DNA of 64,000 bases from a virus (Duplodnaviria; Heunggongvirae; Uroviricota; Caudoviricetes), in the IMG/VR virus record IMGVR_UViG_3300025018_003790; one strand, 5' to 3'. The translations under genes were made by a program, and so were the position numbers. The notes under the pieces are model-generated. The model was not told the origin of the DNA. It did not search any database and saw nothing but the letters and a program-made list of their open reading frames with translations. This document shows positions 19,684-61,760 of the stretch, in pieces; positions within the stretch are counted from its first letter, which is position 1, and each line of letters starts with the position of its first letter.

Positions 19684-21087
19684 ACCGTTCCTTAAAATCT
19701 GCGGAAATCTAAGCATTTGACAATGCTCCAAATATTCGCAAACCTACTGGTTTAAAACCGGCACCGTAAGGTCCGGTAAAGAATCGATTCAAAATATTCC
19801 TCCCTGCATTTGTATCTGCGTTGCCTTTATGACCACAGCCAAGGCACAGGAATATCTCTCCATTCCGATTCTTCTTATCAGCATGACCACATTCAAGGCA
19901 AGTGATACTGGTATTATAACAGGGAACAGAACGGAAGGAAACACGGTTTTCTTCACATCCCATTTGAACCCGATTCAACCAATATCGCCACACCCACGAG
20001 CCGATAACTCGACGCATATTTTTGGAAAGGCGTCGTCTTTCCTTTGTCTTGTGATTCAAGTTTGACAACTTTTCAACAACCACAAGATCAATCTTTTCAT
20101 TAGAAACTATTTGTTTTGCAACCTCATCCATTCGTTGTTTCAATGCCCTTCTGGCTCGCTTTTGTCCTTTAGAGCCATGTTCACAACGAACTATTCTCTG
20201 CACACATTCTTTTATGTCTCTGCCCAACTGCTCACCGTTAGAAAAAGAAGCCAAGGCGTTGATGCCAGAGTCAATTCCGATAGCATTTTTGCCTTCCTTC
20301 TTCTCTCCTGTTTGAATCTCAAAGCAGAACTGGACATCTTTGTCTGTTATGATGTAGCTATTCAATCTCTGTCCCAAATTGTTCCATTTGTTAAAATGCT
20401 TGTGATATCTGATTGGCAAGTCAATGATAGTCTTTTCCCCAATAGAAGACAGATGTAGCCAACCATCGAATTCGTTTGTCTTAGATGGCTGAATATCAGC
20501 GATAGTGCAAGAGACATACATCCGATTGCCCTTATGCTTTGGCTTTTCTGCTGTCAATGCTTCTGCCTTCTGCTTCAACTGATTAGCTTTGTTGGAATAC
20601 TTCGCCTTTTCGGCTTTAGCTAACAATCGCTTCTTATCATTGGCTATTCGCTCTTGCGAGGCTTTAATCATATCTATTGCTTCACGAGCACAGACTTTTC
20701 TAAGTCTCGCTGATAGCCAAGACTCTGGTTTATTGACTATATCCTTTAGCAATTCTGCTTTGGTTGGGCAATCATCCCAGAAAGAATCAATGAACAGATT
20801 GCAAAGTCTACCATATTCAGTCAGCACAGTTTTAAGTTGCTCACGCTTGGTAGCGGTAGCGAATTTCAAAGAACACTGTGTTGACCGAATTATCTTCATT
20901 TTTCTGTCTTCGCCTCTGCTTCTTTAGCTTCCGCTTCTTTCTATTTTCACTACTTCTTTTGCCGTATATTTTGTTGGAAAATGACGCCATTAGAGAAGCC
21001 GGGTTTGCGAATGCTCACATGTTTCCCTTTCGTTTCCCGCAGTTATCCATAGATTTTCGCAGATTTAGTGCCAACTGTTATTAACCC
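19684..21087 (-). mobile_element. IS607-family element, internally deleted copy (tnpB only, with a tnpA 3' remnant)
   Basis: Right end ACCGTTCCTTAAAATCTGCGGAAATCTAAGCATTTGACAATGCTCCAAAT and left end ATCCATAGATTT(T/C)CGCAGATTTAGTGCCAACTGTTAT are shared with the copy at 47616..51623. Sequence 20900-20990 is homologous to the 3' end of tnpA in the other copy. Confidence 0.7.
19709..20899 (-). CDS. tnpB: TnpB (OrfB) RNA-guided endonuclease, IS607/IS605 family
   Basis: RuvC-I IGIDSGIN, RuvC-II VVVEKL, zinc finger CLECGH...CLGCGH, RuvC-III NADTNAGRNI; about 88% identical to the 47641..48831 copy, with the C-terminal half near-identical. Confidence 0.85.
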   Translation of the reverse strand: MKIIRSTQCSLKFATATKREQLKTVLTEYGRLCNLFIDSFWDDCPTKAELLKDIVNKPESWLSARLRKVCAREAIDMIKASQERIANDKKRLLAKAEKAKYSNKANQLKQKAEALTAEKPKHKGNRMYVSCTIADIQPSKTNEFDGWLHLSSIGEKTIIDLPIRYHKHFNKWNNLGQRLNSYIITDKDVQFCFEIQTGEKKEGKNAIGIDSGINALASFSNGEQLGRDIKECVQRIVRCEHGSKGQKRARRALKQRMDEVAKQIVSNEKIDLVVVEKLSNLNHKTKERRRLSKNMRRVIGSWVWRYWLNRVQMGCEENRVSFRSVPCYNTSITCLECGHADKKNRNGEIFLCLGCGHKGNADTNAGRNILNRFFTGPYGAGFKPVGLRIFGALSNA

Positions 21088-29586: not shown

Positions 29587-30072
29587 CTAAAACAAACTCC
29601 CAGAATCATCAGCCTCAAGTTTTGTCCTTGCTTTCTCGTCTTTCTGATCTTTGGTTAAAATTTCGCCATAACATTCAGAAACTGTTGAAACCAAATCTAA
29701 AATCTTTCCAAGTTGTGTCTTTTTTCCACTCGTAACTATTTTATAGCACTTCCCAATTTGAATTTTATCAGCAGAAGCCAATGTCAAAGGATAAACCTCA
29801 ATTGATGAAGCAGATGGGATCGGGATGATATCCCCATCTTCATCAACGCTTACAGGGGATCCTCTAACCGTTAGATATTCATCAGAAATTTCTGTTTGGG
29901 AGATGATTAAGATAGTAGAAATTTCAAATGGTTTTGTTTTAGATTCATATGTAGATTTTAAGAAAAAAGGTGTTATAATTGATGCAAACATAGCAATTAT
30001 TGAAATAACAACTAACAACTCAACTAGACTAAATCCTCTTCGTTTCCTGATCATTTCGGTCCTCTCTCTCAT
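29587..30072 (-). CDS. type IV pilin / pseudopilin-like protein
   Basis: N-terminus KRRGFSLVELLVVISIIAMFASI = prepilin leader, G|F(S)LxE cleavage/methylation motif with Glu at +5, then a hydrophobic helix. Confidence 0.5.
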   Translation of the reverse strand: MRERTEMIRKRRGFSLVELLVVISIIAMFASIITPFFLKSTYESKTKPFEISTILIISQTEISDEYLTVRGSPVSVDEDGDIIPIPSASSIEVYPLTLASADKIQIGKCYKIVTSGKKTQLGKILDLVSTVSECYGEILTKDQKDEKARTKLEADDSGSLF

Positions 30073-30076: not shown

Positions 30077-32020
30077 TCAGATAGTTTTTAGTCTTTCTAG
30101 TTCATCAAGTTTTAAGAAATAGAACCCGAAAACAGTAGGATACTGCAAGGTTCTTTCTGTGTCAAGATCAATATCTTCCAAATGAGTTCCCTGTGGTTTT
30201 TGAACCCACTTATGAATGTTGCCAAAGAATCTAATAAAAAATTTTTTCACCCAATCAACGATTTGGTTGTGTAAATAATCTTCAAATTTTTCAAAGAGGA
30301 TCAATGCTATTTCATATGGTGATTTCCCATGAGTTACCAATAATTCATAACAAGAGTCTAAAACTTCAAATGGCATTAATTCTCTTTCATCTTCTTGGTT
30401 TTCTGCAAGTTCCGCAGAAGCAACAGTTTTGTAGATCAATCTAGCAAGAACAATCGCAAGTTGTGCGCTCTGTTCGTCGTTTTGATTTGCAAGTGCTTTT
30501 AGATAAAAATACTCCAAAATTTTGTTAATCTTTGTTTTTCGGCAACCAGAGATTGGGGCAAAATCTCCTTGCATATCACCAAGTTTTGTCGCATACCCAA
30601 CGGCTGTTTCCGACATATTGCTTGTGCAGAGCACAAGCCCTCGACAAATATTTGAAAGATTGGCAATTTTTGTTGCACGGATTCTCGCTTGTATATTTTG
30701 ATCTGCAATTCTGTAATCCGCCTCTCCAAAACCAAGCCCTTCATTCAATTTACGCAAATCTACTGATTCTCTTTGAAACGGTTCAGCAATTGATTGTTCG
30801 TAAAAATTAAGACCAAGTGTTTCACATAAATCCTTTGAAATATTTCTGGTAGCATCAGAGTTATAAGATGTTGGGAAAGAGACACAGGTAACAACATCGT
30901 GAGGATTCAAATTATTTCTGATTGCCCATTCATAAGCTAAAATTGCAACCAAGACAGAATCTCGGCCACCAGAAATAGAGATTAACATCCTATCAAAAGT
31001 ACCAACTTTTCTGAAATAATCACCCATTCCCATAATAATTGCATTAATTATTTCTTCGATTTCATCAAAAACTACAACTTTTTCTTGTTTTTTAATTCTT
31101 GATCGATCAATGTTTATTCCCTGTGGAATTTTGACTGTATAAATAGAAGGAATTAACTTTTCTCTTTCAATAAAATCTTCTGCTTGACTTTTCCAGGTTG
31201 TATCTCTTGCCCTTGATGCCCAGACTTCATCAAAATCAACATCTTGGATAACAATTCCTGGTTGGAATCGTTCCAATTCAGCTAAACATTCACCCTCTTG
31301 AATAATATAGCCACCACCATCAAATGAAAGTTCTCCGTTCCCACCAACTTGATATGCTGCTAGAAGAATCGAATGATCATCAATTGATCTTTGTCTCAAC
31401 ATCATTTTTCGATTGTTTTCGACTCCTGATCTAAAAGGCGATGCGTTCAAAATAGCATGAACAACTGCGCCTTCATAACCATGGTGCCTCATTGGCCCAT
31501 CTGGCACCCAAGAGGTTTCACAAATTTCACAAGAAAAAATGAAGGAACCATTAATTTCAAAAAGGAGATCGCCAAAATCTGGATTCTCTAAACCAAAACC
31601 AATTTTTGTTAAATCAAATTGTTTGCCTTCTGTGGTTGTTCTTTTTTCATAAAAAATACCATAGTTCGGAAGATGTTGTTTGGGGGTGATACCGACAACT
31701 TTACCTTTATGAATCACAAAAGCACAATTAAAAATTCCACGACTCGGGATCGGCAGGAATCCACCAATCACAAAAATTGTATCTAGATACATTGTAGCTT
31801 CACAAAATCTATAAATTTCTTCTATTTCTCGGTGAAAGAAAAATGGCAACAAAAGAAAATCGCTACAAGGATAACCTGTTACACAACCTTCTGCATAAAC
31901 CAATAGATTACAACCAAGATCATTTGCATGAGAAGCATAAGGAAGCATTAAATCTACATTGTTCTTAAAATCACCAACTTTAGGATTCATGGAGACAACA
32001 CCGAGACGTGCTTTTGACAT
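30077..32020 (-). CDS. nadE: glutamine-dependent NAD+ synthetase
   Basis: N-terminal CN-hydrolase (nitrilase) domain, C-terminal NAD synthetase domain with PP-loop ISISGGRDSVLVAI (SGGxDS); 647 aa. Confidence 0.8.
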   Translation of the reverse strand: MSKARLGVVSMNPKVGDFKNNVDLMLPYASHANDLGCNLLVYAEGCVTGYPCSDFLLLPFFFHREIEEIYRFCEATMYLDTIFVIGGFLPIPSRGIFNCAFVIHKGKVVGITPKQHLPNYGIFYEKRTTTEGKQFDLTKIGFGLENPDFGDLLFEINGSFIFSCEICETSWVPDGPMRHHGYEGAVVHAILNASPFRSGVENNRKMMLRQRSIDDHSILLAAYQVGGNGELSFDGGGYIIQEGECLAELERFQPGIVIQDVDFDEVWASRARDTTWKSQAEDFIEREKLIPSIYTVKIPQGINIDRSRIKKQEKVVVFDEIEEIINAIIMGMGDYFRKVGTFDRMLISISGGRDSVLVAILAYEWAIRNNLNPHDVVTCVSFPTSYNSDATRNISKDLCETLGLNFYEQSIAEPFQRESVDLRKLNEGLGFGEADYRIADQNIQARIRATKIANLSNICRGLVLCTSNMSETAVGYATKLGDMQGDFAPISGCRKTKINKILEYFYLKALANQNDEQSAQLAIVLARLIYKTVASAELAENQEDERELMPFEVLDSCYELLVTHGKSPYEIALILFEKFEDYLHNQIVDWVKKFFIRFFGNIHKWVQKPQGTHLEDIDLDTERTLQYPTVFGFYFLKLDELERLKTI

Positions 32021-32051
32021 CGCAGTTCCCTTTCGACACAGGCCCTTGGGT

Positions 32052-32696
32052 TTAGATTAACAATTCATCAAAAAGTTCTGTATCGAGATTAGTTAAGCAA
32101 TTGACTTCAAATTTTGAAAGTTGTTTGCCGTTGATCCACCAACTTTTATTGCCATCAGCTAATTCAATAGCAGGCCCATCAAGGCGGTGAAGCTGGCCAT
32201 TTTGCAACCAAGATTTTGAACCATTGGCAAATTCAATTGCTGGGCCATCAAGGCGATGAAGTTTGCCGTTGAGCCACCATTCTTTTGTTCCGTCAAACCT
32301 TTCAATAGCTGGCCCATCAAGGCGATGAGATTTGCCATTCAATCTCCATTCTTTTGATCCGTCGGCATTTTCAATTGCTGGCCCATCAAGGCGGTGAGGC
32401 TGGCCATTTTGCCACCATTCTTTTGATCCATCGGCAAATTCCTTTGCTGGCCCATCAAGACGATGAGGTTTGCCGTTGATGAACCATTCTTTTACCCCAT
32501 TGGGCCAATCAACAGCAGGCCCATTAAGGCGATGAAGTTTGCCGTTGATGTACCAATGTTCTACTCCCTCGGGTGTTTGATATGCTGGCCCATCTTCTCG
32601 GTGAAGTTGGCCATTTAAAGTCCAAGTTTTTACGCCATTATTCTCGATCCTTAATTTTGGATTTTTTTTCATAGTTAACCTCAATTCATCAATCAA
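32052..32696 (-). CDS. MORN-repeat (variant) protein
   Basis: About eight tandem units of the WxNGKxHRLDGPAxE..DGSKEW form. Confidence 0.7.
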   Translation of the reverse strand: MIDELRLTMKKNPKLRIENNGVKTWTLNGQLHREDGPAYQTPEGVEHWYINGKLHRLNGPAVDWPNGVKEWFINGKPHRLDGPAKEFADGSKEWWQNGQPHRLDGPAIENADGSKEWRLNGKSHRLDGPAIERFDGTKEWWLNGKLHRLDGPAIEFANGSKSWLQNGQLHRLDGPAIELADGNKSWWINGKQLSKFEVNCLTNLDTELFDELLI

Positions 32697-33952
32697 TAAA
32701 TAGTTTCTTCAAAGAATTCGGTTGAATTATCCCAAACACGTTGATACCTTTCGACTTCACTCTTGGGGCCTTGTGCTTTCGCAAGATTGTTGCTAATTTT
32801 AACTGTTGAAACAGGTTCGTTGATCATCAAAGAACTTATCACTTCAACTGCTTTAACAATAATTGACAAAGGATCCGCACCAAGATCATTCGAGCAATTT
32901 GTACCAATCCCGAATTTAACACCAATCCTTCCACTGAAAGCTTCAAATAGTTTTTTAGCAAGTGGGGGATTTAATCCATCACTGAAAAAGATGACTTTTT
33001 TGAGTGGGTCAATACCTTGCGATTGATAGAAAGAAATAACCCTTTTACCGAACTTGAAGGGGTCGCCAGAATCATGCCTAATCCCTTTGTAAAAACCAGA
33101 AAGAAATCCAGCAAAATCAGCAAAAAATGCATCATCACCAAATGTATCCCCCAAAGCTATTGATAATGGTTTCCCATAAAAAAGTTTCCAATTTCTAAGG
33201 ACAAATCTTTGTGATTTCCTCAAAGATTCATCCCCACCAATTGCCCCCATTATTGCAGCTATAACCATATACAATTCGTGGGCTTGAGTCCCGCCTGGAA
33301 TTTGTACGTGTTTCATAGCTAAATTAATATTTGATGTCCCTAAACAAGAAGGACAATTCTCAACAAAATCCTCATAACATTCTTCTTGCCATTCAGGACT
33401 AAAAGCCCGCCTTGTCCCAAATTCTACCCACTCAAAACCAGGAATAGAATTGAATAATTCAATTTTTTCTTTTCTGCGGCGGCGGCCTTCTTTTTTAAGT
33501 TCTTCCATTTGATTTGGATATTTATACCGATAATAAAGAGCATTGATTATTGACATAATAAAGGTCTCTGAATAACTGGATCTAGCCCAATAATCTTGAG
33601 AGTCGATCAAAAATTGTCCATCCCGAATGTCAACATTGATTTTAGGCATTTGATAATTTTTTAAGAATTCAAAATAATCAGAAAAATCTTCTTTCTTATA
33701 CCCAACCCTGAATGAATCAGCAATGAATCCAATTTCGTTTGCAGAAAACCTTAATGATCTGCAATGATCTAATTCTTCTCTAACTGCTTCAATTGGAATA
33801 ACTTCAGCTAATTTATTGTCTTTTTTTCTATTGTTGAAAGCAAATCTAACAATAGGGTCTGGGAATCTTTCTTCAATGAAAGCCTGCATGGCAATTTTAT
33901 ACCAATCTGTATGCAAAAGAGTTTTGATAATTGGTTCTGGGTTTGTTAGCAT
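32693..33952 (-). CDS. pncB: nicotinate phosphoribosyltransferase-like enzyme (NAPRTase/NAMPT superfamily)
   Basis: N-terminal LLHTDWYKIAMQ matches the PncB signature LLDTDAYKLHMQ; real start probably the internal ATG at 33950-33952, preceded by GAGGAGGAAAG SD. Confidence 0.65.
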   Translation of the reverse strand: MLTNPEPIIKTLLHTDWYKIAMQAFIEERFPDPIVRFAFNNRKKDNKLAEVIPIEAVREELDHCRSLRFSANEIGFIADSFRVGYKKEDFSDYFEFLKNYQMPKINVDIRDGQFLIDSQDYWARSSYSETFIMSIINALYYRYKYPNQMEELKKEGRRRRKEKIELFNSIPGFEWVEFGTRRAFSPEWQEECYEDFVENCPSCLGTSNINLAMKHVQIPGGTQAHELYMVIAAIMGAIGGDESLRKSQRFVLRNWKLFYGKPLSIALGDTFGDDAFFADFAGFLSGFYKGIRHDSGDPFKFGKRVISFYQSQGIDPLKKVIFFSDGLNPPLAKKLFEAFSGRIGVKFGIGTNCSNDLGADPLSIIVKAVEVISSLMINEPVSTVKISNNLAKAQGPKSEVERYQRVWDNSTEFFEETIY

Positions 33953-33990
33953 CTCTGCTTTCCTCCTCGCCCTCTTCCCCGTTTGTAGCA

Positions 33991-34025
33991 AAGCCCTGCG
34001 GCGCTGTGAGAGCGCCGCAGGGCTT
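33991..34025 (-). promoter_or_regulatory. 15-bp perfect GC-rich hairpin between the vWA and pncB genes
   Basis: AAGCCCTGCGGCGCT-gtgag-AGCGCCGCAGGGCTT; no U-tract, so not a canonical terminator. Confidence 0.5.
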
Positions 34026-34036
34026 ACGATCGGCTC

Positions 34037-34849
34037 TTACCCGAAGAGTCCGCTTGAGGCGGCCCCAGAGAAGCCCTTGGAGCTACGACTCATCGTTTGC
34101 GTCGTGCGTGAGGCGGCTTGGAACTTGAGCCGGACTTCTCGCTTCAAGGCGTCGGGGTCGGTGACCCCGACGCCGACTTCAACAATGTCTTTTTCGGGGA
34201 TTCCCATTCTTGTGAAAATATCTTTGTAGAAATCGGGCCTTGTTCCACCAATCCCCATAGCTGAAATTGTAATCCATTCATTAGGAACAATATCGTTTGT
34301 GATCAACGGAGCCAATTCTTCGGGGTTGCGGCCGGTGGTGTCGCCACCATCAGTCACAATCACAATCGCACCCCGAGGATCAATGTTGGCTGACCGAATG
34401 ACTTCATATTGTGCCAAAAAATCAGCAATAGCAGTTTCAATTGTGGGGATCAATGGGGTTCCGCCGCCGGGGAAATAATTCTGACGACTCAATCTTGTCG
34501 CCTGCTCAACAGGCATGAAAGAATCTAGCATCCCGTTGTTGAGTGTAAATGTGAGAACCAAAATATCATCCCTGACCTTCGAGGCTTCCATGCCATCAAG
34601 GATACAATTGAATCCTTCAATGATACAATCTTCAAATCCACTCAAACTTCCGCTATCATCAAGAATAATCAACATCAAAAATGCACTGGAACTTTCCAAA
34701 TCATCAGGGTCAATTGTTACAGCATCACGAATTGAAGTTGCAATTCCAGGTTGAGCAATTAGATTGCTTGCAGCCGATGAAAGCTCCCCATTACCAAATG
34801 CTTCATTAAATGCACGCTCAATATCGGTGAGTCCTTGGTTTTCAGACAT
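34037..34849 (-). CDS. von Willebrand factor A domain protein (TerY-like)
   Basis: MIDAS motif IILDDSGSLSG (DxSxS) and later T/D ligands; GC-rich C-terminal third. Confidence 0.7.
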   Translation of the reverse strand: MSENQGLTDIERAFNEAFGNGELSSAASNLIAQPGIATSIRDAVTIDPDDLESSSAFLMLIILDDSGSLSGFEDCIIEGFNCILDGMEASKVRDDILVLTFTLNNGMLDSFMPVEQATRLSRQNYFPGGGTPLIPTIETAIADFLAQYEVIRSANIDPRGAIVIVTDGGDTTGRNPEELAPLITNDIVPNEWITISAMGIGGTRPDFYKDIFTRMGIPEKDIVEVGVGVTDPDALKREVRLKFQAASRTTQTMSRSSKGFSGAASSGLFG

Positions 34850-34894
34850 CGGGATCGTCCTTTCGCCTTCCGTAGTTTAGATACGTTCACCAGT

Positions 34895-36025
34895 TCAGAG
34901 TCGGATTCCCCACTCTTCAATCGGAACGATCCTATCGCCGTCAAACATCTTCACAAATTTCATTCCAGCATCAGCAAATTTCTTGTAAGAAACTTCAGAA
35001 ATTGCATCAAATGGGACACCTTCAAATCCAACCGAAGGATTCGGTGGAATGTCGGGAACAGGAGAAGTTCCGTCACGAACGATCAGGACCTTCTGTGCCA
35101 GCGACGGATCCAATCCCATAATTCTTTCCAACAAATGATCAATGCAACATTTCACACAATGCGTTTTTGCTTCACCCTTGATGATCAAATAATCAACAGC
35201 AAGCAATTGGTTGATGAAGGTATCATCGTCTTCACCAACTTTGTATCCACCAAATGTTTCCGTAACTTCTGGACCCAATGGAGAAAAATGTTCCGTGTTG
35301 GGCCAAGTGCCCTTGATTGAAAAATCGAATTGAGATTTTCTTGCAACTGTGTGGAAAAATGCAAGTTCATACAAGGCCGGGATAAGCGCATGGCTCGGCT
35401 CACCAATCCCGCCGTGGTAGGTCCAAACTGTATGAAGGTATTTCCCCGTGTCCTCAAGTTCTTTGGTGTAGAAAAGAGAATGTTTGACCATCATTGCATA
35501 ATTACCCTTCCCGTCATCGGTCGGGAAAACATAATGTGCAATATCGGGATTCGGCATCCAAATTCTATTCTTGATATCTTCGTTTTTGATCACCGTAAAT
35601 GGACCTGGGAAGTTGCCATTCCGGTCAACCCAATAGATCGGGTGAAAAATTTGCATCGGGTAGTGCGAATCAAGAGTAATGAAAAATCTAGAAATATGAT
35701 CTAAATTAGCATAGGACCAACGACAGGTTCTCTCAACATCTCCAAGAGCACCTGGGACAACCAATTCATATCCGGGGATACAGAAAGTGATCTGAAAATC
35801 GACCCAAAGGACGCCAATTTTTACTTTATCGTTGAGATGATGTTCAACATTATTTGTTTTTGCCCAATCAACAGCGTCTTGTGCTCGTTGTTCCTTGGGG
35901 GTTGGCCAAACTTCTCCGAGCCGGGGCATGGTGTCCCGCTCGAAGAAAGTTGGCAAGGGTAGCAGTCTCGCATCTGGCATGGTCAAGGCTCCTTGTTGAC
36001 TGGTTAGTCGCCGAGATTCTCGCAC
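34895..36025 (-). CDS. cysteine-hydrolase (isochorismatase/nicotinamidase)-like protein
   Basis: KIGVLWVDFQITFCIPG resembles the isochorismatase-family D-x-Q-x-x-F start and KGEAKTHCVKCCI a candidate nucleophile cysteine, but the D-to-C spacing is much longer than in PncA. Confidence 0.35.
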   Translation of the reverse strand: MRESRRLTSQQGALTMPDARLLPLPTFFERDTMPRLGEVWPTPKEQRAQDAVDWAKTNNVEHHLNDKVKIGVLWVDFQITFCIPGYELVVPGALGDVERTCRWSYANLDHISRFFITLDSHYPMQIFHPIYWVDRNGNFPGPFTVIKNEDIKNRIWMPNPDIAHYVFPTDDGKGNYAMMVKHSLFYTKELEDTGKYLHTVWTYHGGIGEPSHALIPALYELAFFHTVARKSQFDFSIKGTWPNTEHFSPLGPEVTETFGGYKVGEDDDTFINQLLAVDYLIIKGEAKTHCVKCCIDHLLERIMGLDPSLAQKVLIVRDGTSPVPDIPPNPSVGFEGVPFDAISEVSYKKFADAGMKFVKMFDGDRIVPIEEWGIRL

Positions 36026-36026: not shown

Positions 36027-37928
36027 TCACACAGAGAATGTCAAGCGGCGCAGACTCTTTCCTGCGAACGAGAACACAGTCCCGTCGCTAGAGACCCAAA
36101 CAACATCTCCATCTGAAATAAATTTTGAGGTATCAGGGAATTCTCGGGTCAAAGCAAACTCTCCACGATCTACTTCAAATCTTTTCAATCCTTCATCCGT
36201 AGCAACAAACAAATATCTACTGATGGCTGATTTACTTCCCATAGATTTCATTAATTCTTTATTCTTTTCTTCGTCGTCTGAAAATGCTAAAATATCTCCA
36301 GCAGAATTAACAACCAAACATTTGTTTTTAAGCTTCGGGCCATCTTTATGTGAGATGAAAATCCAAGCATAATCTTTTGAGAAACAGACATTCATATCAA
36401 TCAATTGTCCAGTGATTCTCGGGAAATCATTAATTATACTTTTGCCTTGACCTTCAACGGGAAAGGTAAAAGCAGAATAAAACGCTCCAACTCTAAACCA
36501 ACCAAAACCGAAATTTTCACCAATCCAAATCTTTGTTCTTCTCTGAAGAGCAGAACATATTTTTTTACTAGAAATCCCATCCCCATTCTTATAAACATTC
36601 CCGTTTTCCAACCAAAAATAAGCATTTGAATTTGCATCAATCATGGGGATGTTATCAACAACATCTAATTGTCCTTTATAACAAACCTCTCCATTTTTGA
36701 TAACTGAAAACTGGCTATTTTCCGCAAAAACTGTTAATTTACCACAAACCCTAATTCTTGATTTTGATGATTTCGGAAGATATTCGGTTGAGATAACTTC
36801 TCCATTTTCACGCAAAATAATCCTATCTTCTAATCTCACCAAAAGCATTTTGTTATTTTGTAACTGTGCAAATAAAATTCTTTTTGTTCTTTCCATTGGA
36901 GAAGATAGAACAATCTCACTTTTGACATTCCCCATAATTTGAATCGTTTGAGTCACAACCCCCCCAGCCCCACCACAAGAGGGACATGAGTTTCTCATGT
37001 GGACAGATCCACAAGTTGAACAAGTTGTAAATCTTAATGATTCTAATAGCCTTTTTGGAATAGGTTCTCTTCTATCTTGAACAAAACAATTATAGAAAAT
37101 CTGTAAAAGATCATCATTGATGTATCCAAATGGCATTGCATTTTTGGGGAATCCAACTTGTTTTTCATCGAAGACGGTTATCCTATTCCTTCTTCGATAA
37201 ACCCAAGTTTCATCTCTTGTCATTTTACTCGGGGGTGTAAACTTGCCACCATAAGGGCCTTCAAAAGTTAGACCAGTGAAAAGAAGACAGAGATATCCAT
37301 ACCAGTCAGATTGAACACTATGTCTATTTGAGAATTTTATTTCATTAGCATCTAAATCACAATTTAATGGATCAACATAATCAACAGAAAAAACACGGCA
37401 AGGCCAAGAATCATATTGCATACTATCTGCGTCAATAAAATATGGAGTCAAATCTGCATTAGAAACCATTAAGTTAAATTCACTCACATCTCCAACAACA
37501 ACCTTTTGTGAGTGAATTTCTTGCATCGTGTTAGCAAAACCAAGAAAAATATTCAAGATATCATTTATATCTTTTGACCCTCTAAATTTTTTATTAAACC
37601 ATCTTGAAAGCAGAACATGATCTGACAAAAGTTGCATGGTGTAACCAATAACCATTTTGTTATTCAGAATCAAATCAGTTGGGCTTACAACATTAGATGG
37701 TAAATTTCTTGGAAATGCTGGCAGTTTTGATTGATATTCGTCAATTCTATCTTTGACTGCTTTTTGTCTCCAAGGTTCTGTGAAATCTGGGTGATTCGGT
37801 GGTTTATAAATCTTAAAAAGGATATTCCCCAATTTGTAAATAGTTGCTTCGCCACCCTCTGAAAAGTAGTTGTTTACATCATCAATTTTCTCTGTCCGAC
37901 CGTTAACCTGGATGTTGAAGTTACCCAT
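36027..37928 (-). CDS. atypical Ser/Thr protein kinase-like protein with zinc ribbon and repeat-rich C-terminal domain
   Basis: Gly-rich loop FSEGGEATIYKLGN, Lys in LFKIYK, catalytic-loop-like VVVGDVSEFNLMV, DFG-like FIDADS, then CSTCGSVHMRNSCPSCGG zinc ribbon; start overlaps the stop of the PP2C gene. Confidence 0.5.
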   Translation of the reverse strand: MGNFNIQVNGRTEKIDDVNNYFSEGGEATIYKLGNILFKIYKPPNHPDFTEPWRQKAVKDRIDEYQSKLPAFPRNLPSNVVSPTDLILNNKMVIGYTMQLLSDHVLLSRWFNKKFRGSKDINDILNIFLGFANTMQEIHSQKVVVGDVSEFNLMVSNADLTPYFIDADSMQYDSWPCRVFSVDYVDPLNCDLDANEIKFSNRHSVQSDWYGYLCLLFTGLTFEGPYGGKFTPPSKMTRDETWVYRRRNRITVFDEKQVGFPKNAMPFGYINDDLLQIFYNCFVQDRREPIPKRLLESLRFTTCSTCGSVHMRNSCPSCGGAGGVVTQTIQIMGNVKSEIVLSSPMERTKRILFAQLQNNKMLLVRLEDRIILRENGEVISTEYLPKSSKSRIRVCGKLTVFAENSQFSVIKNGEVCYKGQLDVVDNIPMIDANSNAYFWLENGNVYKNGDGISSKKICSALQRRTKIWIGENFGFGWFRVGAFYSAFTFPVEGQGKSIINDFPRITGQLIDMNVCFSKDYAWIFISHKDGPKLKNKCLVVNSAGDILAFSDDEEKNKELMKSMGSKSAISRYLFVATDEGLKRFEVDRGEFALTREFPDTSKFISDGDVVWVSSDGTVFSFAGKSLRRLTFSV

Positions 37929-38844
37929 TCTTCCTTCTCCTGATTGCGATCAATGAGGTATCATCAATCAGGAGTGAATTCTCTGTCCGAACTTTTCTAT
38001 TGTCCCAATCAACAACAGTCCTATTGGCTTGCATCATGCCAAATAAACGTTGCAAAGTTTGCGGGTTTCTGAAAAAAACATCAGTTGAAATTATTTCATC
38101 AATAGAAGGGACTACCTTGTCGGTTCTGCCAGGAAGAAGTTCCCCTTGAGCTTCTTCCAAGAACATGACCCCATCTGATCCTACAACAAGACTTTCAACA
38201 TCTTCTGTCGCAAGCTCTTCATGGAATGAAAATTCGAAACAAAGTGGTTGAGTTTCATGGAAACTTGAATATTTACTTGCAATAATCTCTTCGTGTGTTT
38301 CTCTGAACCCTTCAATTGCACTATAGACAATATAAGGCGGGGCATTATTTTCAAATGGACCTATTTGAGTCCTTTGACCATTAAGATAATAAACCCCATC
38401 ACCAATTGAAAAAATAGTTGTTTTATCTTCTGTTACAACAAACCCAATCAATGTTGCAGCAAAAGTATCAATCATATCTTTAATAGTTTCTAATAAACAA
38501 AAATTCTTATTAGATTGATAGATTCCAAAACTTGTTCTTTTGATTAAAGAGACCAAAGATAAATGTAGACTACTATAAATAAATTCGTTTATAGTATCCC
38601 AATATCCAGTCCTGATTTGAGTCGCAATTGAATTAGCTAAATAATTAGCAAGGATACTTGATCCAATTTGGGCGTTATCGGTGCTCCCACACCCGTCTGA
38701 AACAACTCCAATAAGAAAAAGTTTATGATGATTAAGAGCAATGGAATCTTGATTCGGCAATCCTTTCAAGCCTATTTCATTGCCTAAGTGTTCTCTACCA
38801 ATGATTGAAGCACTGGTAGTTTCGAACCTCTCCATCAGATCCAT
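37921..38844 (-). CDS. PP2C-family (PPM) Ser/Thr phosphatase
   Basis: LIGVVSDGCGSTDNAQIGS (DG.GG-like), FSIGDGVYYLNG (GDSR-like), VVGSDGVMFLEE (SDG-like) metal-binding motifs. Confidence 0.7.
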   Translation of the reverse strand: MDLMERFETTSASIIGREHLGNEIGLKGLPNQDSIALNHHKLFLIGVVSDGCGSTDNAQIGSSILANYLANSIATQIRTGYWDTINEFIYSSLHLSLVSLIKRTSFGIYQSNKNFCLLETIKDMIDTFAATLIGFVVTEDKTTIFSIGDGVYYLNGQRTQIGPFENNAPPYIVYSAIEGFRETHEEIIASKYSSFHETQPLCFEFSFHEELATEDVESLVVGSDGVMFLEEAQGELLPGRTDKVVPSIDEIISTDVFFRNPQTLQRLFGMMQANRTVVDWDNRKVRTENSLLIDDTSLIAIRRRKNG

Positions 38845-43718: not shown

Positions 43719-44144
43719 TCAATACAGACTTAGAACACCAGTTATTTCGTCGATGTCCTCTGATTTGTTTGGGCCAATTCCAACTGCTGTGTTAGTAGGA
43801 ATCCCCTTGAATTCAGTTAAACCTGCATCTGTGATTAATTCACAGGTTAATCCTGCTTCTTTTGCTCTGTTGAAAATATATAAAAGTTCTTCTTCACTTC
43901 CAACTTGCAGACAGACTTTTGTGAATTTCCCATTAATCCAAATAATTTCTTCTTCTGTTAATTCAATTGTTACTTGGTTTGATGAGGGTTTCAATTCTTT
44001 TCTGATTTTGTTTGTCAAAAAAGCTTGTGCGGCATGGCTACCTTGTGCAATTTCTTTCCCTCTTCGAACTTTTAAATCTTTCCTCATAATTATTACCTGC
44101 TTCACATTCATCATCCCCACCTCCATTCTAGTGTGTTTAGCCAT
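43719..44144 (-). CDS. pth2: peptidyl-tRNA hydrolase, PTH2 family
   Basis: KQVIIMRKDLKVRRGKEIAQGSHAAQAF matches the PTH2 N-terminal core (K/R-G-K-hAAQ-SHA). Confidence 0.75.
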   Translation of the reverse strand: MAKHTRMEVGMMNVKQVIIMRKDLKVRRGKEIAQGSHAAQAFLTNKIRKELKPSSNQVTIELTEEEIIWINGKFTKVCLQVGSEEELLYIFNRAKEAGLTCELITDAGLTEFKGIPTNTAVGIGPNKSEDIDEITGVLSLY

Positions 44145-45746: not shown

Positions 45747-46658
45747 TTATTTTTCTGCTTTTTTCGACTTGCTGCTGGTTTCTTCTGCGGCCGGAAGATT
45801 GAGAATCATCCCGTTCCCAGAGCCAACGACCAAGGGTTGTGCCCCATCCCAAGCATCAATCGTAAGATACTTCAAAAGACTTGGAGTCAAAGATTCGTTG
45901 ATAATTCTATTCGATTCTGCTTGTGCTCGGGCGATTTCCAGCTTCGATTCGGCCTCGCCCTTTGCTTTCGCAATTGCCTGATCAGCTTGTGCCTTAATCT
46001 CCTTGACCTTTTGCTCCGCTTTACTGGCCTCCTGGCTGGCTTCGATCACAGCGTTGATCGAGTTTACAACCCTTTCGTCAGGCCGAGGAGCGGTCATAAA
46101 GCTAACGTTGTTGAAAATAAATCCACTTGGGCCAAGTTCCGATTCCAAATATTCCTTAACTTCATCAAGCAATGCACCCTTCTTTTCACCGAAAATTTCA
46201 ATCGCTGAATACTTCGAGGCACAACGATTGAATCCATCCCTGACTCTGTCACGGACAGTGTTGTCAGAAAGTTCTTCAATCGTCGTCCAACGATATTTGC
46301 TGTAAATATCAGGGGCTTTTGCCGGATCAATTTGATATTCAATACTCACATCAGCATTGAAATTTGCACCTTCGCTGGACGAAAAATCGAAAGAATCATC
46401 GTTCTTGCTACCCTCTGTGGGGTTTTTCGTCCATTTCTCTGATTGACGATAAATTGGGAAAACAATAATTTCTGTTGTGGGCATGAAATAGAAATGGTAT
46501 CCAACGCCCAACGGAGTCGGGTGGACGCCAGCAGAGCTACCTGTTTTTTTGACTTCAACCCCGACATGTTGCGGTGGGACCTTCGCACACCCCGAAGCAA
46601 AAATTGACACAAAAATCATAATCGAAACTGCCACTGCGGTTCTTTTGGAGAACATCAT
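45747..46658 (-). CDS. SPFH/Band-7 (prohibitin-like) lipoprotein
   Basis: Lipobox IFASGC after a signal helix; SPFH core followed by an Ala/Glu/Lys-rich coiled coil (EASKAEQKVKEIKAQADQAIAKAKGEAESKLEIARAQAE). Confidence 0.7.
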   Translation of the reverse strand: MMFSKRTAVAVSIMIFVSIFASGCAKVPPQHVGVEVKKTGSSAGVHPTPLGVGYHFYFMPTTEIIVFPIYRQSEKWTKNPTEGSKNDDSFDFSSSEGANFNADVSIEYQIDPAKAPDIYSKYRWTTIEELSDNTVRDRVRDGFNRCASKYSAIEIFGEKKGALLDEVKEYLESELGPSGFIFNNVSFMTAPRPDERVVNSINAVIEASQEASKAEQKVKEIKAQADQAIAKAKGEAESKLEIARAQAESNRIINESLTPSLLKYLTIDAWDGAQPLVVGSGNGMILNLPAAEETSSKSKKAEK

Positions 46659-50650: not shown

Positions 50651-51287
50651 TGTTTTCTTCCTTTTCTTTTTCAGCTTTACGCTTTTTCCTATTATCAGCA
50701 GACCGTTTTCCGTAAATTTTATTTGAAAAAGATGCCATCAGCGAAAGAATGTCTTCCACTAACTCTTCTTCATAACTCTTTCCAAGTATTTCTTCAACCC
50801 ATTCAATCTCGACACCGTGGCTTCGGAAGAATTTCACAAGAAACTCAAACATAAATCGGCACAACCGATCACGATGTTCAATGATAACCTTGTCAATCTC
50901 ACCTTCTTCAGCCAGTTTGAGAAGCCGGTTCAATTTTGGGCGATCATCCGACATTCCAGAAGCAACCTCTTCAAAAGTTGCCACGACGAAATATTTTTTA
51001 TCAACACAATATTTTGACAATCTTCCCGATTGTCTCCCTAAGTCGCCTTTTGTTTTTTGTTCTTGCGATGATACTCTAGCATATACCGCTACTCTGATAG
51101 TATCTCTAGTTTTCTCTGCCTCTTCGCCAATAAAAGCCTGAATATCTGATATTTTGTATCGCCTGTGACCACCGGGGGTTTTCATCGGGACAAGAGTTCC
51201 TGACTTGTCCCATTGGCGCAAGGTATCTATATTGACTCCAAGGATTTGTGAGGCTTCTCCTATGCTAACTAACTTCTGTTGCGCCAT
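50637..51287 (-). CDS. tnpA: IS607-type TnpA serine recombinase with N-terminal MerR-like HTH
   Basis: HTH LVSIGEASQILGVNIDTLRQWDKSG; resolvase catalytic block IRVAVYARVSSQEQ...GDLGRQ; 216 aa. Confidence 0.8.
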   Translation of the reverse strand: MAQQKLVSIGEASQILGVNIDTLRQWDKSGTLVPMKTPGGHRRYKISDIQAFIGEEAEKTRDTIRVAVYARVSSQEQKTKGDLGRQSGRLSKYCVDKKYFVVATFEEVASGMSDDRPKLNRLLKLAEEGEIDKVIIEHRDRLCRFMFEFLVKFFRSHGVEIEWVEEILGKSYEEELVEDILSLMASFSNKIYGKRSADNRKKRKAEKEKEENNEPI

Positions 51288-52362: not shown

Positions 52363-52370
52363 ATCAGACA

Positions 52371-53453: not shown

Positions 53454-53455
53454 TT

Positions 53456-54763: not shown

Positions 54764-55639
54764 TCAAGTGTTCACAATCTCGAACCAAAACTGTTCTCTA
54801 TCAAGGTCAGCGAGAACGAAATTGTTTTCATTTTCGTTGGGAATTGATGTAAATCCGTTTTTCATTCTGGTTGGTGTTGCTTTGACCCAAACGCCAAACT
54901 CAGGGTAAAGCGAAAGAACAGCAGATAATGGATCGTGAAATGCTTTTTGGTCTCTTTGATCTAGATAAATTGACATTCCTTCCCGAATCAATTCTCCCCC
55001 TATACTTTTTGTATTTGAGGCTAAAACTCGTTCATGAATTTGTTTGTTGTAAACAACTGTATGACAAATATTCTTCCCTACAAATCTTCTTTCAGAGAAA
55101 TTGGATAGCAACAACATTTCAAGTCCAGAGGGGCACCCCATCATGTTGAAGGTTGGGAAAAACTCATGCCCCTCAAATTTTTCTAATCTTTGTTTTGGAG
55201 AAAACTTTGAGTAGGGCAGAAATCCACCCTGCATCAAAAGCTTCCCAAGTTGATGTGTTTGATTGAGGGCTATTTCACCAGAAGCAATAGCCGGACCAAT
55301 GACGAACCAATTATCTTCTTCAGAAATTTCTATTTTATCTTCGTCAGCTTCCAACTCAAAAGGAGCATTATGTCTGGTCAAAACTTTCTGATGAAAACCA
55401 TGGGAATAATCTTTTCGATCACTTGATTTCCCTGGTTTGCTTGAAAAGATTGGGAAGTCTTGTTCAAACTTGTCCCTCAAAAATTTAGCAATGGCTATTT
55501 GTGTTGAGTATCCCGGCGTGATAAACCAAGCTTTGAATTTAATCCCCTTTGATTGAAGATAGCACAAAGCAAAAAAATCATCTGGGTCTCCACCAAGATC
55601 AGTCTCAATTATCATTTTTAATCCTTCGACCATTGCCAT
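54764..55639 (-). CDS. nucleoside hydrolase (IU-NH family)-like protein
   Basis: N-terminal IIETDLGGDPDDFFAL matches the DxDxxxDD Ca-binding signature of inosine-uridine nucleoside hydrolases. Confidence 0.5.
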   Translation of the reverse strand: MAMVEGLKMIIETDLGGDPDDFFALCYLQSKGIKFKAWFITPGYSTQIAIAKFLRDKFEQDFPIFSSKPGKSSDRKDYSHGFHQKVLTRHNAPFELEADEDKIEISEEDNWFVIGPAIASGEIALNQTHQLGKLLMQGGFLPYSKFSPKQRLEKFEGHEFFPTFNMMGCPSGLEMLLLSNFSERRFVGKNICHTVVYNKQIHERVLASNTKSIGGELIREGMSIYLDQRDQKAFHDPLSAVLSLYPEFGVWVKATPTRMKNGFTSIPNENENNFVLADLDREQFWFEIVNT

Positions 55640-61081: not shown

Positions 61082-61615
61082 TCATTCTTTAACTGCTGTT
61101 TTCTTTTCGTTCATTTTGGTCTCAACAATTTTCGGGACATAATTTGAAACATCAAGGTTCAAATCGAACAATTGTTTAACCATTGAAGAACTGAGATGAC
61201 TCAAGTCCTGGTCTCCAGTCAAAAATACTGTTTGAACTCCAGATATTTCTTGATTGATCTTTGCTATTTCAATTTCAAACAAAAAATCAGTTACACTTCG
61301 GAGGCCCCGCACGATTGAGACGTTGGCGTTCCCAAGCCTTTCCATTATTTCTTTTGCTGTGACTGCTGTTGATCCTTCATAACAAACAACACTCCACATC
61401 CCGTCAAAATCATCAAGTGTTTCTTTTAGAGCTTGATTGACAAGTTCTTCTCGTTCTTTGATATCAAAAAATTCACTTCCTACCTTTGCCGGGTTGATGC
61501 CAATCCCAACAATCACATGATTAAAGACATTTGTTGCTTCTTTGATCACAGAGATATGGCCGAATGTAATTGGATCAAAGCTTCCTGGGTAAAAACCTGC
61601 CGAAATTTTATTCAT
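61082..61615 (-). CDS. cytidylyltransferase-fold nucleotidyltransferase (PPAT/NadD-like)
   Basis: AGFYPGSFDPITFGHISVI = (T/H)xGH motif in the PPAT/NaMN-adenylyltransferase context. The start is probably the ATG at 61613-61615 (AAGGGA SD), because the upstream 44 codons of the ORF-track call lie in a GC-rich leader. Confidence 0.6.
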   Translation of the reverse strand: MNKISAGFYPGSFDPITFGHISVIKEATNVFNHVIVGIGINPAKVGSEFFDIKEREELVNQALKETLDDFDGMWSVVCYEGSTAVTAKEIMERLGNANVSIVRGLRSVTDFLFEIEIAKINQEISGVQTVFLTGDQDLSHLSSSMVKQLFDLNLDVSNYVPKIVETKMNEKKTAVKE

Positions 61616-61760
61616 AATCCCTTGATCGCTTTCTTCCGGCGGCCCGGCGCTTCCTGGCCGCCTCCTGCTTCGTGCCACCATGATACCCCGAAGCACCGCT
61701 CTTAGCAATACGCCAGAGGCTTTCTTCGACGGCCCGCCTTTGGGCAACAGCGTCGGGCAT
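61616..61760 (-). promoter_or_regulatory. GC-rich leader with TATCATGGTGGCAC element
   Basis: Shares TAT(A/C)ATGGTG(C/G)CAC and downstream GGCCAG(A/G)A composition with the 6165-6275 leader. Confidence 0.4.

Follow-up and report, generated by a model that had tools for sequence, protein, structure and literature searches.

The 64,000-nucleotide stretch of DNA analysed here (the window) comes from a large mobile genome, at least 114–132 kb in size and most likely that of a big phage, and we consider it reasonably probable that this genome carries a full deamidated salvage route for NAD+, together with a captured signalling cassette, for NAD+ upkeep. Three of the four route genes, those for a PncA-like cysteine hydrolase, PncB and NadE, form one co-directional array on the minus strand, within which the PncA-like gene is embedded in a cassette of signalling genes that also occurs in other viral contigs and in bacteria.

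Genes for a proposed route from nicotinamide to NAD+

The open reading frames named in an earlier note on this DNA, which had been made from the letters alone, are all present on the minus strand where that note had placed them. The first, NadE (30077..32020, minus strand, 647 aa), matches the Pfam families CN_hydrolase (1.9e-13) and NAD_synthase (1.2e-33), and in the PDB it is most similar to glutamine-dependent NAD+ synthetases (3ilv, 1.4e-48; 3dla, 2.6e-44), with which the glutaminase Glu, Lys and Cys residues and the SGGRDS loop align; against NF010588 an E-value of 4.4e-88 is obtained, yet the score of 296 bits is below the equivalog cutoff of 479. No close relative was found in a homologue search of IMG/VR. 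These domains and residues bear out its reading as NadE, and the protein is predicted to be a two-domain glutamine-dependent NAD+ synthetase converting NaAD to NAD+. PncB (32693..33952, minus strand), whose reading frame extends to a TTG at 33991 and gives 419 aa from the ATG, matches NAPRTase (5.4e-41) and NAPRTase_N (1.4e-15) as well as PDB entry 1ybe (8.9e-63), with the histidine of the GTxAHE motif aligned, and reaches 267.6 bits with TIGR01514 (cutoff 269.55). Its recognition from an N-terminal signature is thereby confirmed by profiles, and the protein is a putative nicotinate phosphoribosyltransferase, which would form NaMN from nicotinate and PRPP.

The third protein is more divergent. 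The hydrolase is encoded by an open reading frame at 34895-36025, of which public gene calls use the ATG at 35980 (34895..35980, minus strand, 361 aa), and it matches no Pfam or NCBIfam model, even at E<=10. Its 317 homologues are named "nicotinamidase-related amidase" or "isochorismatase", and its fold agrees with that of nicotinamidases (the isochorismatase fold), with 13-20% identity to solved structures and, by sequence, an E-value of about 0.06 against solved PncA structures. Two residues of the catalytic triad, Asp and Cys, correspond in the alignment to Asp8 and Cys138 of M. tuberculosis PncA, and both a D-x-H...H metal motif and a KG...YS motif are present. The nicotinamidase assignment, called weak at first, is now supported by fold, motifs and gene context, and we propose that this long, divergent nicotinamidase-like cysteine hydrolase performs the step from nicotinamide to nicotinate.

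The remaining gene, for NadD, lies about 16 kb past the end of the window and 44 kb from the operon, on a contig identical to the window (100%) across a 4.3-kb overlap. A 145-aa C-terminal fragment scores 100.8 bits with TIGR00482 and shows the FxPxxxNPxK and ISSTGIR motifs. With NadD included, this genome has a gene for each of the four steps that lead from nicotinamide to NAD+. The nicotinate-branch route suggested in the earlier note is in this sense partly supported, though not through the gene to which the note had pointed: 61082-61681 (61082..61681, minus strand) scores 129.1 bits with TIGR01510 (cutoff 103.3) and 18–33 bits with NadD models, and of the label "NadD/PPAT-like" only the PPAT (CoaD) half is retained, the candidate being rejected as NadD.

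Between the NadE and PncB genes lies the gene for a repeat protein (32052..32672, minus strand) built from seven to eight units of 23 residues that follow the pattern W-x-NG-x-x-HR-x-DGPA. It had been described as a MORN protein, and its position agrees with that description, but no Pfam MORN match was obtained, only a weak one to DUF6745; a paralogue with 61% identity, overlapping the end of NadD beyond the window, has relatives labelled MORN_2 or YwqK, so that "MORN-variant" (YwqK-like) is the accurate name. The gaps among the NadE, repeat-protein, PncB, vWA and hydrolase genes are 20–84 nt, compatible with one transcription unit. A gene for a pilin-like protein with an N-terminal methylation motif (29587..30054, minus strand; Pfam N_methyl, 2.8e-08) follows 4 nt downstream of the NadE gene, and its membership of the functional unit is uncertain. 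Elsewhere in the window, 54764..55639 (minus strand) has no match in single-sequence searches; the profile of its family, built on 408 homologues in which an N-terminal Asp cluster is invariant, matches RihA (3.2e-13) and IU-NH (2.7e-12) over the full length, and the guess that it is a nucleoside hydrolase therefore holds, in the form of a divergent protein of that fold. It is peripheral to the route and might release a base, e.g. nicotinamide, from its riboside.

A signalling cassette around the nicotinamidase-like gene

The nicotinamidase-like gene occupies third place in a conserved cassette of four genes, which run PP2C, Ser/Thr kinase, PncA-like, vWA. The vWA, kinase and PP2C genes of the array are not mentioned in the earlier note. 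The PP2C-type phosphatase (37921..38844, minus strand; Pfam PP2C_2, 1.1e-15) overlaps the kinase gene (36027..37928, minus strand) by 8 nt. Searched against the PDB, the profile of the kinase family (A3) finds Ser/Thr kinases (RSK, 7e-11; PknB, about 1e-6), with the Gly-rich loop, Lys39, His139/Asp147/Asn152 and Asp166 invariant or nearly so, and Pfam Pkinase matches nine kinase homologues in IMG/VR loci. The kinase domain is followed by a zinc ribbon (CxxC...CxxC; zf-ChsH2, E 0.0013) and by a conserved domain of about 300 aa at the C-terminus, which had no match in a PDB profile search and whose AF2 model from single-sequence input has a pLDDT of 36. In the vWA-domain protein (34037..34849, minus strand) the MIDAS motif (DxSxS...T...DG) is intact, with D64, S66, S68, T131, D167 and G168 invariant in the family; the profile of this family has a weak similarity to integrin I domains (E 0.02), and Pfam recognises up to nine neighbour proteins in IMG/VR loci (VWA in seven, VWA_2 in two).

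The cassette order is kept, tightly packed, in IMG/VR contigs of 42–416 kb (L012-L015, L022, L027), and a looser version is found in six further loci; in 5 of 19 loci a PncB or NadE gene is no more than 10 kb away. Among 80 bacterial loci, PP2C and kinase genes are present in 14, a vWA gene is downstream of the PncA-like gene in 18 and the ADP-ribose-responsive NAD regulator NrtR adjoins in 10, while an unbiased survey also places NAPRTase and QRPTase among the immediate neighbours. In one bacterial locus (L086) the genes for NrtR, PP2C, kinase, PncA-like protein, vWA and PncB follow one another in the same order as in the window. These bacterial loci point to a bacterial origin of the cassette and to a link with NAD. 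Since no NrtR gene was found in the seen part of the element, the element itself presumably controls the array.

Proposed function and nature of the element

In the proposed mechanism, the divergent PncA-like protein would convert nicotinamide to nicotinate, PncB would join nicotinate and PRPP into NaMN, NadD would turn NaMN into NaAD and glutamine-dependent NadE would complete NAD+. The nicotinamide could stem from host NADase defences or from NAD-consuming enzymes of the element itself, and would most likely serve to keep or rebuild the infected cell's pool of NAD+. The array appears to have been captured together with the PP2C, Ser/Thr kinase and vWA cassette, and a probable role of this triad is to switch the nicotinamidase step by phosphorylation. 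The distance of 44 kb between NadD and the operon speaks against this scheme.

The route may also work purely as a metabolic booster, one that feeds replication and the NAD-consuming enzymes of the element with NAD+ and has no counter-defence role, which we regard as possible though somewhat unlikely. Four steps are slow and costly next to NARP1-3, the deamidated route requiring more ATP plus glutamine. Genes for Tpt1, a NAD-dependent ligase and an ADP-ribosylglycohydrolase are found near the cassette in other viral contigs, and a survey of jumbo phages interprets such gene sets likewise (PMC11662467). An Apyc1-like anti-Pycsar hydrolase is, however, encoded in the same genome, and the CBASS inhibitor Acb3 is close to the cassette in one viral contig, both of which would fit a counter-defence benefit. 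Cleavage of NAD+ always releases the nicotinamide base, and nicotinamide, where the route would begin, is exactly what TIR and SIR2 NADases release. The ancestral operon in bacteria is, moreover, tied to NrtR, an ADP-ribose-binding regulator (PMC2330246). The two roles are compatible.

That the element is a phage is likely but unproven, the evidence being circumstantial. It has about 100 mostly small, co-directional open reading frames, the majority without family match, five scattered tRNA genes, and genes for HNH, TnpB, methylases, PTH2, HisRS and PurF; a 114-kb contig of the genome is ERZ27293386 k141_349346. Homologues of the PncA-like protein, PncB and NadE occur in the huge-phage genomes LR756511, LR756500 and LR745208, while the window DNA has no megablast match among GenBank phages. 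The description "phage-borne" agrees with the general traits of the element and lacks a hallmark gene, none for capsid, terminase, portal, tail or packaging being recognised in about 88 kb. This lack, the housekeeping-type CoaD, HisRS, PurF, PTH2 and tRNAs, a PcfJ-like protein, a resolvase and TnpB copies, and the same cassette on bacterial chromosomes would all suit a large plasmid, another extrachromosomal element or a mis-binned cellular fragment, in which the NAD genes would be ordinary salvage genes for the host of that replicon. We think this unlikely: no ribosomal or core metabolic operon is present and no conjugation gene was seen other than the PcfJ-like one, the short, co-directional, mostly unmatched reading frames do not favour it, huge phages typically have scattered tRNAs, a tRNA synthetase, HNH and an Apyc1-like hydrolase, and outside bacteria the nearest occurrences of the cassette are in IMG/VR contigs and in published genomes of huge phages.

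Quite improbable, in our view, is a self-contained TerY-P-type signalling or conflict module whose hydrolase acts on an amide other than nicotinamide beside an incidental PncB and NadE, leaving only a path from nicotinate to NAD+, even if the hydrolase fails nicotinamidase and isochorismatase models of Pfam and NCBIfam, exceeds PncA by about 150 residues and has signalling proteins, not NAD enzymes, as its tightest conserved partners, the PncA-like and vWA genes differ in GC3 from their flanking genes, and TerY-P-like triads are reported to be stand-alone anti-phage systems (PMC11090510).

Comparison with known systems

The earlier note had presented a nicotinate-branch route in a phage as a different solution, and this novelty was overstated: a 2024 survey describes jumbo phages in which the Preiss-Handler set is complete, one cluster being pncB-nadD-nadE, and phage pncA is mentioned there too (PMC11662467), so that the route itself is not new. 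In these phages (e.g. Kuafu_71; Microbiome 2024, PMC11662467), as here, PncB, NadD and NadE are encoded in a viral genome by partly clustered genes, and host-independent NAD+ production is the proposed purpose. The present genome differs in that NadD is 44 kb from PncB and NadE, and in the addition of a PP2C/kinase/vWA triad, a MORN-variant protein and a nicotinamidase step, with which the route can begin at nicotinamide. The cultured Agrobacterium jumbo phage Atu_ph07 (MF403008) has an annotated nicotinate phosphoribosyltransferase and NAD synthetase, with 31% and 25% identity to the window proteins; unlike in the window, these genes are about 89 kb apart and form no operon, and tblastn found no PncA-like homologue in that record.

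NARP1 (Adps and Namat), NARP2 (NadV/Nampt and NMNAT) and NARP3 (PnuC and NadR-like) share the proposed outcome, the restoration of NAD+ in the infected cell from a breakdown product or precursor, whereas the route described here would use the deamidated branch (nicotinate, NaMN, NaAD) and four enzymes where those pathways need two. A scan of the other 68 reading frames of the window gave 20 Pfam families, none of them a NARP signature family, and PncA, PncB and NadE are absent from the NARP paper. The same pathway genes form the bacterial NrtR-regulated "salvage I" operons, such as pncA-pncB and pncB-nadD-nrtR-nadE (Rodionov et al. 2008, PMC2330246), and bacterial PncA-like homologues adjoin NrtR; in contrast, the nicotinamidase of the window belongs to a long divergent family and sits inside the PP2C/kinase/vWA cassette. 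The text of that study contains neither "phosphatase" nor "von Willebrand", and the parts of it on which we drew link no protein kinase to NrtR regulons. The coupling of a nicotinamidase to the triad appears to be an undescribed link.

Canonical PncA and Pnc1 share the isochorismatase fold with the window hydrolase but have 180–216 aa, whereas the hydrolase, at 361 aa, has an N-terminal extension and large insertions and lies beyond what the Pfam Isochorismatase model can detect. The TerY-P triad (TerY-like vWA, PP2C and Ser/Thr kinase-zinc ribbon) comprises the same three domain types in a compact operon, with a zinc ribbon following the kinase in both, and PADLOC models, TerY-P included, do not detect the window triad. 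In the window, the kinase and vWA genes are separated by a nicotinamidase-like gene, the kinase has its extra C-terminal domain, and the context is NAD salvage rather than the tellurite resistance or restriction of TerY-P.

Genes of a proposed deamidated NAD+ route

The minus strand of the window carries a co-directional gene array that is unbroken over 28.7–38.8 kb, and all of the ORFs named in the earlier note, which had read a NadE, a PncB-like protein and a cysteine hydrolase as a phage gene set for rebuilding NAD+, with a MORN protein in one operon with them, were recovered in our ORF calls. The 647-aa NadE (30077–32020, minus strand) matches both Pfam CN_hydrolase (1.9e-13, above the gathering score) and NAD_synthase (1.2e-33), in agreement with the two domains proposed for it, and a PDB search returned solved glutamine-dependent NAD+ synthetases, namely 3ilv (1.4e-48) and that of M. 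tuberculosis, 3dla (2.6e-44). Its glutaminase Glu, Lys and Cys line up with the residues of 3ilv, its PP-loop SGGRDS is aligned with SGGADS in the same structure, and it passes the domain model TIGR00552 (94.2 vs. 63.65) and falls below the NCBIfam equivalog cutoff (NF010588, 296 bits vs. 479); judged from its sequence, it is a divergent member of the two-domain NAD+ synthetases.

The PncB assignment is equally borne out by the 419-aa product of 32693–33952 (minus strand, counted from the ATG of public gene calls), in which both the catalytic (PF04095 NAPRTase, 5.4e-41) and the N-terminal domain (PF17767 NAPRTase_N, 1.4e-15) were found, with PDB NAPRTases matched at up to 8.9e-63, the value obtained for the A. 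tumefaciens structure 1ybe. On TIGR01514 it reaches 267.6 bits, the equivalog cutoff being 269.55. Its GTQAHE is aligned with GTNAHE of 1ybe, so that the GTxAHE histidine, which we take to be the ATP-dependent autophosphorylation site, is conserved.

Between NadE and PncB lies the gene described as encoding a MORN protein (32052–32672, minus strand), which does consist of repeats, 23 residues long and seven to eight in number (W-x-NG-x-x-HR-x-DGPA), but does not match Pfam MORN and gives a weak match to DUF6745 only; relatives of its paralogue are annotated as MORN_2 or YwqK. A type IV pilin-like protein of 155 aa with an N-terminal methylation motif (29587–30054, minus strand) begins 4 nt past NadE, and a 261-aa ORF without assignment follows beyond an 80-nt gap. 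Promoter and terminator scans gave counts no higher than in shuffled sequence, and the riboswitch search with Rfam yielded tRNAs only.

The gene at 61082–61681 (minus strand), called NadD/PPAT-like and assigned to the NadD step, turned out to encode phosphopantetheine adenylyltransferase, CoaD, as it scores 129 bits on the CoaD equivalog (cutoff 103) and 18–33 bits on NadD models, and it was rejected as a NadD candidate. A bona fide CoaD, here adjoining tRNA-Arg, is thus found in a phage-like genome; in 5 of the best 80 bacterial loci, some of which stem from MAGs of Nitrospirae type, the PncA-like gene has a CoaD gene directly upstream as well. The true NadD was found approximately 16 kb past the window's right end, on a matching contig from another sample (L036) that is 100% identical to the window across a 4.3-kb overlap. 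The fragment (L036:2–439) comprises the C-terminal 145 of 185 aa, contains the ISSTGIR motif and scores 100.8 bits on TIGR00482 (E 9.4e-29), against a cutoff of 112.45 for the full-length protein. The next gene (L036:429–1073), which overlaps NadD by 11 nt, encodes another MORN variant, 61% identical to the product of 32052–32672, each paralogue therefore lying directly beside an NAD enzyme gene (NadD, or PncB and NadE). No such 23-residue-repeat protein was found alongside the cassette described below in the IMG/VR loci examined. Because NadD belongs to the same genome, this one genome encodes enzymes for each of the four steps that lead from nicotinamide, by way of nicotinate, NaMN and NaAD, to NAD+, the nicotinamidase-like hydrolase being the candidate for the first; the deamidated route suggested earlier accordingly stands as regards its NadE, PncB and nicotinamidase-like genes, with a different gene in the place of the NadD then pointed to. 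The proposed IU-nucleoside hydrolase (54764–55639, minus strand), which is missed by standard Pfam and gave no match in single-sequence searches, belongs to a family of about 290 aa with 408 homologues, the profile of which gives full-length matches to nucleoside hydrolases (RihA, 3.2e-13), upholding the fold.

The nicotinamidase-like hydrolase (361 aa; ORF 34895–36025, called from 35980, minus strand) was the weakest assignment of the earlier note. Single-sequence searches returned nothing useful in Pfam, NCBIfam, PHROGs, PADLOC or PDB sequences, and neither Pfam Isochorismatase PF00857 nor the NCBIfam nicotinamidase models matched even at E≤10, its identity being obtained only by homologue collection, structure prediction and fold search. 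The 317 homologues collected (about 344 aa, 40–44% identity) carry source labels such as 'nicotinamidase-related amidase' or 'isochorismatase', and at least 591 loci are present in GTDB species representatives, mainly of cyanobacteria, Nitrospirae and Chloroflexi. In an alignment of 34 members D61 (VDxQ), K223 (KG...E-H-YS) and C275 (AK-x-HCV) are invariant, as are D104-x-H106...H113, whose D-x-H...H spacing in the alignment is that expected of a metal site. We take these motifs, following the PncA/Pnc1 literature, to be the catalytic triad and the putative metal site of nicotinamidases, K223 being the probable triad Lys from its motif position. The family profile aligns the Asp and Cys with Asp8 and Cys138 of M. 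tuberculosis PncA (3pl1), with an E of only 0.06. An AlphaFold2 model (pLDDT 83, pTM 0.85) has an isochorismatase-type fold nearest to nicotinamidases, the top Foldseek matches being yeast Pnc1, Leishmania PNC1, Pyrococcus PncA and S. pneumoniae nicotinamidase; a BFVD search with the same model gave no significant phage match and only giant-virus nicotinamidases at E≥0.01. Homologue labels, invariant motifs and fold match together give the nicotinamidase assignment reasonable support, and we infer nicotinamide to be the substrate.

A cassette of phosphatase, kinase, hydrolase and vWA genes

The earlier account of the gene set, correct in the ORFs that it named, did not include three genes by which the hydrolase is enclosed. 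On one side, between PncB and the hydrolase, is a 270-aa vWA protein (34037–34849, minus strand), in the family of which the MIDAS motif DxSxS...T...DG is invariant; the family profile matches PDB integrin I domains weakly (E 0.02), and Pfam VWA or VWA_2 matches up to nine cassette-neighbour proteins at other loci. The gene next upstream of the hydrolase (36027–37928, minus strand) encodes a 633-aa Ser/Thr kinase, whose family profile matches PDB Ser/Thr kinases (RSK 7e-11, PknB ~1e-6) and keeps the Gly-rich loop, the catalytic Lys, the HxD/N loop and the DxD residues. C-terminal to the kinase domain, the family consensus contains a CxxC-x10-CxxC zinc ribbon (zf-ChsH2, E 0.0013), and beyond it comes an all-beta domain, likewise conserved and about 300 aa long, for which a PDB profile search was empty and a single-sequence AF2 model unusable (pLDDT 36). 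The kinase gene overlaps by 8 nt that of a PP2C phosphatase lying upstream of it (37921–38844, minus strand; PF13672 PP2C_2, 1.1e-15). GC3 is 0.42–0.44 in the PncA-like and vWA genes (34037–35980) and 0.24–0.28 in the kinase, PP2C, PncB and NadE genes, a contrast that hints at separate or more recent acquisition, or replacement, of the former two.

Hydrolase relatives are encoded at 19 IMG/VR loci, and the order PP2C, kinase, hydrolase and vWA, with the genes only a few nucleotides apart, recurs in L012/L013, L014, L015, L022 and L027 (contigs of 42–416 kb), another six loci keeping the kinase and/or the vWA gene within a few kb. At 5 of the 19, PncB or NadE lies no more than 10 kb away. The window genes common to these loci are nearly only the four cassette genes and PncB/NadE, with the single exception of a weak 52-residue match in L030, and because almost no other window genes are shared with those contigs, the cassette is considered to move as a unit.

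Among the best 80 bacterial loci, PP2C and kinase genes lie upstream of the hydrolase in 14, a vWA gene lies downstream in 18, and 10 have alongside them a homologue of NrtR, a Nudix-related NAD regulator, all three counts being lower bounds because many contigs are short. In an Entotheonellaceae locus (L086) the genes run NrtR, PP2C, kinase, hydrolase, vWA and PncB, as they do in the window from PP2C onwards, and in Oscillatoria a reduced PP2C-hydrolase pair is found under NrtR. An unbiased Pfam scan of the immediate bacterial neighbours also gave NAPRTase (4), QRPTase (3–4) and cytidylyltransferase-like proteins (4). Operons for the synthesis and salvage of NAD are under the control of NrtR, for which PMC2330246 describes an ADP-ribose-binding effector domain; the words 'phosphatase' and 'von Willebrand' are absent from the text of that paper, and the passages of it consulted tie no protein kinase to NrtR regulons. 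A tblastn search of the inspected part of the element found no NrtR gene. Three short contigs binned in CPR or DPANN MAGs, with the labels Gracilibacteria, Woesebacteria and Woesearchaeota (L041, L061 and L115), all carry the PncA-like gene, with the full cassette in L061 and L115 and NrtR additionally in L061; mis-binning of mobile or viral DNA may explain their placement.

Nature of the element carrying the cassette

Contigs identical to the window occur in ENA, Logan and JGI, with lengths reaching 114,323 bp, and 131,852 bp is on record; about 88 kb of the genome were inspected. Most of the approximately 100 ORFs in this inspected part are short and co-directional, and the majority have no family match. 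Five tRNA genes were called by ARAGORN (Leu-aag, Glu-ttc, Thr-tgt, Ser-tga and Arg-tct; 52288–61036, minus strand), four of which are confirmed by Rfam, and are interleaved with small ORFs without assignment. Two IS200/IS605-type TnpB-like ORFs of 396 aa each (19709–20899 and 47641–48831), with a Cas12f1-like TNB domain, are 87% identical to each other, which suggests an insertion element active within the genome. An R2K-clade ATP-grasp (966–1802), a PcfJ-like protein (2329–3717), DUF5662 (7116–7589), a PTH2 peptidyl-tRNA hydrolase (43719–44144), an SPFH/Band_7 protein (45747–46658) and a MerR-resolvase beside a ResIII-like helicase (49133–51287) are accessory content as in very large phages or plasmids. 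The contig L036 (L036:1–9851, about 6–16 kb past the window's right end) adds, besides NadD and the MORN variant, an RlpA-like protein, a 649-aa ORF without assignment, cREC-REC, PurF (387 bits), HisRS (321 bits) and an MBL hydrolase with a precomputed match to the anti-Pycsar protein Apyc1.

We consider the element to be probably, though not certainly, a large phage, the main alternative being a large plasmid-like element. Against the phage reading, PHROG and Pfam searches of 68 window and 31 flanking ORFs, about 88 kb in all, gave no gene for capsid, portal, terminase or tail, and a relaxed PHROG scan of the ten largest unassigned ORFs gave no virion gene either. Likewise against it, the genome has no close relative among GenBank phages or in IMG/VR: megablast of 24 kb against GenBank phages gave no match, and NadE and the PcfJ-like protein lack close relatives in IMG/VR. 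The largest window ORF (13124–15328, 734 aa) matches no family and nothing in phage databases; the one relative it has is a 42%-identical protein on a 100-kb IMG/VR contig (L118) with which no neighbours are shared. In favour of a large phage are the short, co-directional and family-less ORFs, the scattered tRNAs and the TnpB pair, together with further phage-like content in the form of HNH endonucleases, DNA methylases, PTH2, HisRS, PurF and the Apyc1-matching MBL hydrolase. The only non-bacterial homes found for the hydrolase family, moreover, are published huge-phage genomes (LR756511, LR756500 and LR745208) and IMG/VR contigs. The case for the genes being phage-borne is circumstantial.

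Possible working and relation to known systems

NAD+ depletion is a common bacterial anti-phage strategy, and nicotinamide is the base freed by every NAD+ glycohydrolase reaction. The four enzymes would turn this nicotinamide back into NAD+ with PRPP, ATP and glutamine as inputs, the triad most plausibly gating the nicotinamidase step by phosphorylation. Such gating is suggested because the hydrolase gene is physically enclosed by the triad, because this enclosure is conserved across bacteria and viral contigs, and because an NrtR-controlled PP2C-hydrolase pair occurs in Oscillatoria. The benefit may be the defeat of Thoeris/DSR/SIR2-type NAD+ depletion or the feeding of NAD-dependent viral enzymes, roles which are compatible with each other; Tpt1, an NAD-dependent ligase and an ADP-ribosylglycohydrolase are found near the cassette in other viral contigs. 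Tentatively, and as a reading that as a whole we hold to be rather doubtful, the four cassette genes could form one unit, a phosphorylation-gated nicotinamide-recycling switch that in bacteria is controlled by the ADP-ribose sensor NrtR and has been repeatedly captured by large phages, in which it would sense NAD+ cleavage and turn on deamidated four-enzyme rebuilding, constituting a fourth kind of viral NAD+ reconstitution and tying a TerY-P-type triad to NAD+ homeostasis. Overall, the original observation is confirmed and its interpretation partly supported.

Preiss-Handler genes in jumbo phages have so far only been listed by surveys, and the locus offers a compact gene set for testing, with a putative nicotinamidase that would close the loop from the NADase product nicotinamide to NAD+. 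Quite apart from phages, the conserved position of a nicotinamidase-like gene within the triad, with NrtR beside it in many bacteria, suggests a layer of post-translational control over NAD salvage that has not been described before, and the cassette supplies a concrete biochemical partner for an enigmatic type of triad. The most useful product of this analysis is the testable hypothesis of a phosphorylation-gated nicotinamide-recycling cassette.

As regards known viral systems, NARP1, NARP2 and NARP3 have been demonstrated by experiment, none of them using the nicotinate branch, and PncA, PncB and NadE go unmentioned in the NARP paper. Their enzymes differ from those of the deamidated route in the element, and none of the NARP signature pairs (Adps+Namat; Nampt+NMNAT; PnuC+NadR-like) was found among the 20 Pfam families of 68 other window ORFs or among the operon proteins. 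The element can also be compared with the NAD-jumbo phages of PMC11662467, in which complete salvage or Preiss-Handler pathways are reported for 174 of 668 gut jumbo phages, including 'Kuafu_71' with a pncB-nadD-nadE cluster, and phage pncA is mentioned too. The element likewise encodes pncB, nadD and nadE; a phage of that group would also have a genome of >200 kb with virion genes, and the longest contigs of the element are 114,323 and 131,852 bp, with no structural gene found in about 88 kb. In the cultured phage Atu_ph07 both PncB and NadE are annotated, and a tblastn search of 50,697 GenBank phage records found PncB in 13 and NadE in 19. Since phage Preiss-Handler sets have thus already been published, the central idea of the earlier note is a variant of a known, experimentally unproven kind.

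The triad matches the domain recipe given for TerY-P in PMC11090510, in which a vWA protein and a PP2C phosphatase are joined by a kinase that bears a zinc ribbon at its C-terminal end. Its proteins are missed by the TerY-P models of PADLOC, whose defence models gave no match for PP2C, vWA or hydrolase and only a weak MkoA match for the kinase. A full-text literature search gave no paper joining a nicotinamidase with PP2C and vWA. What appears to be new, compared with these systems, is a divergent nicotinamidase family that would close the loop from nicotinamide, and its embedding in a TerY-P-like triad that appears to be kept both in bacterial operons linked to NrtR and in the genomes of large viruses.
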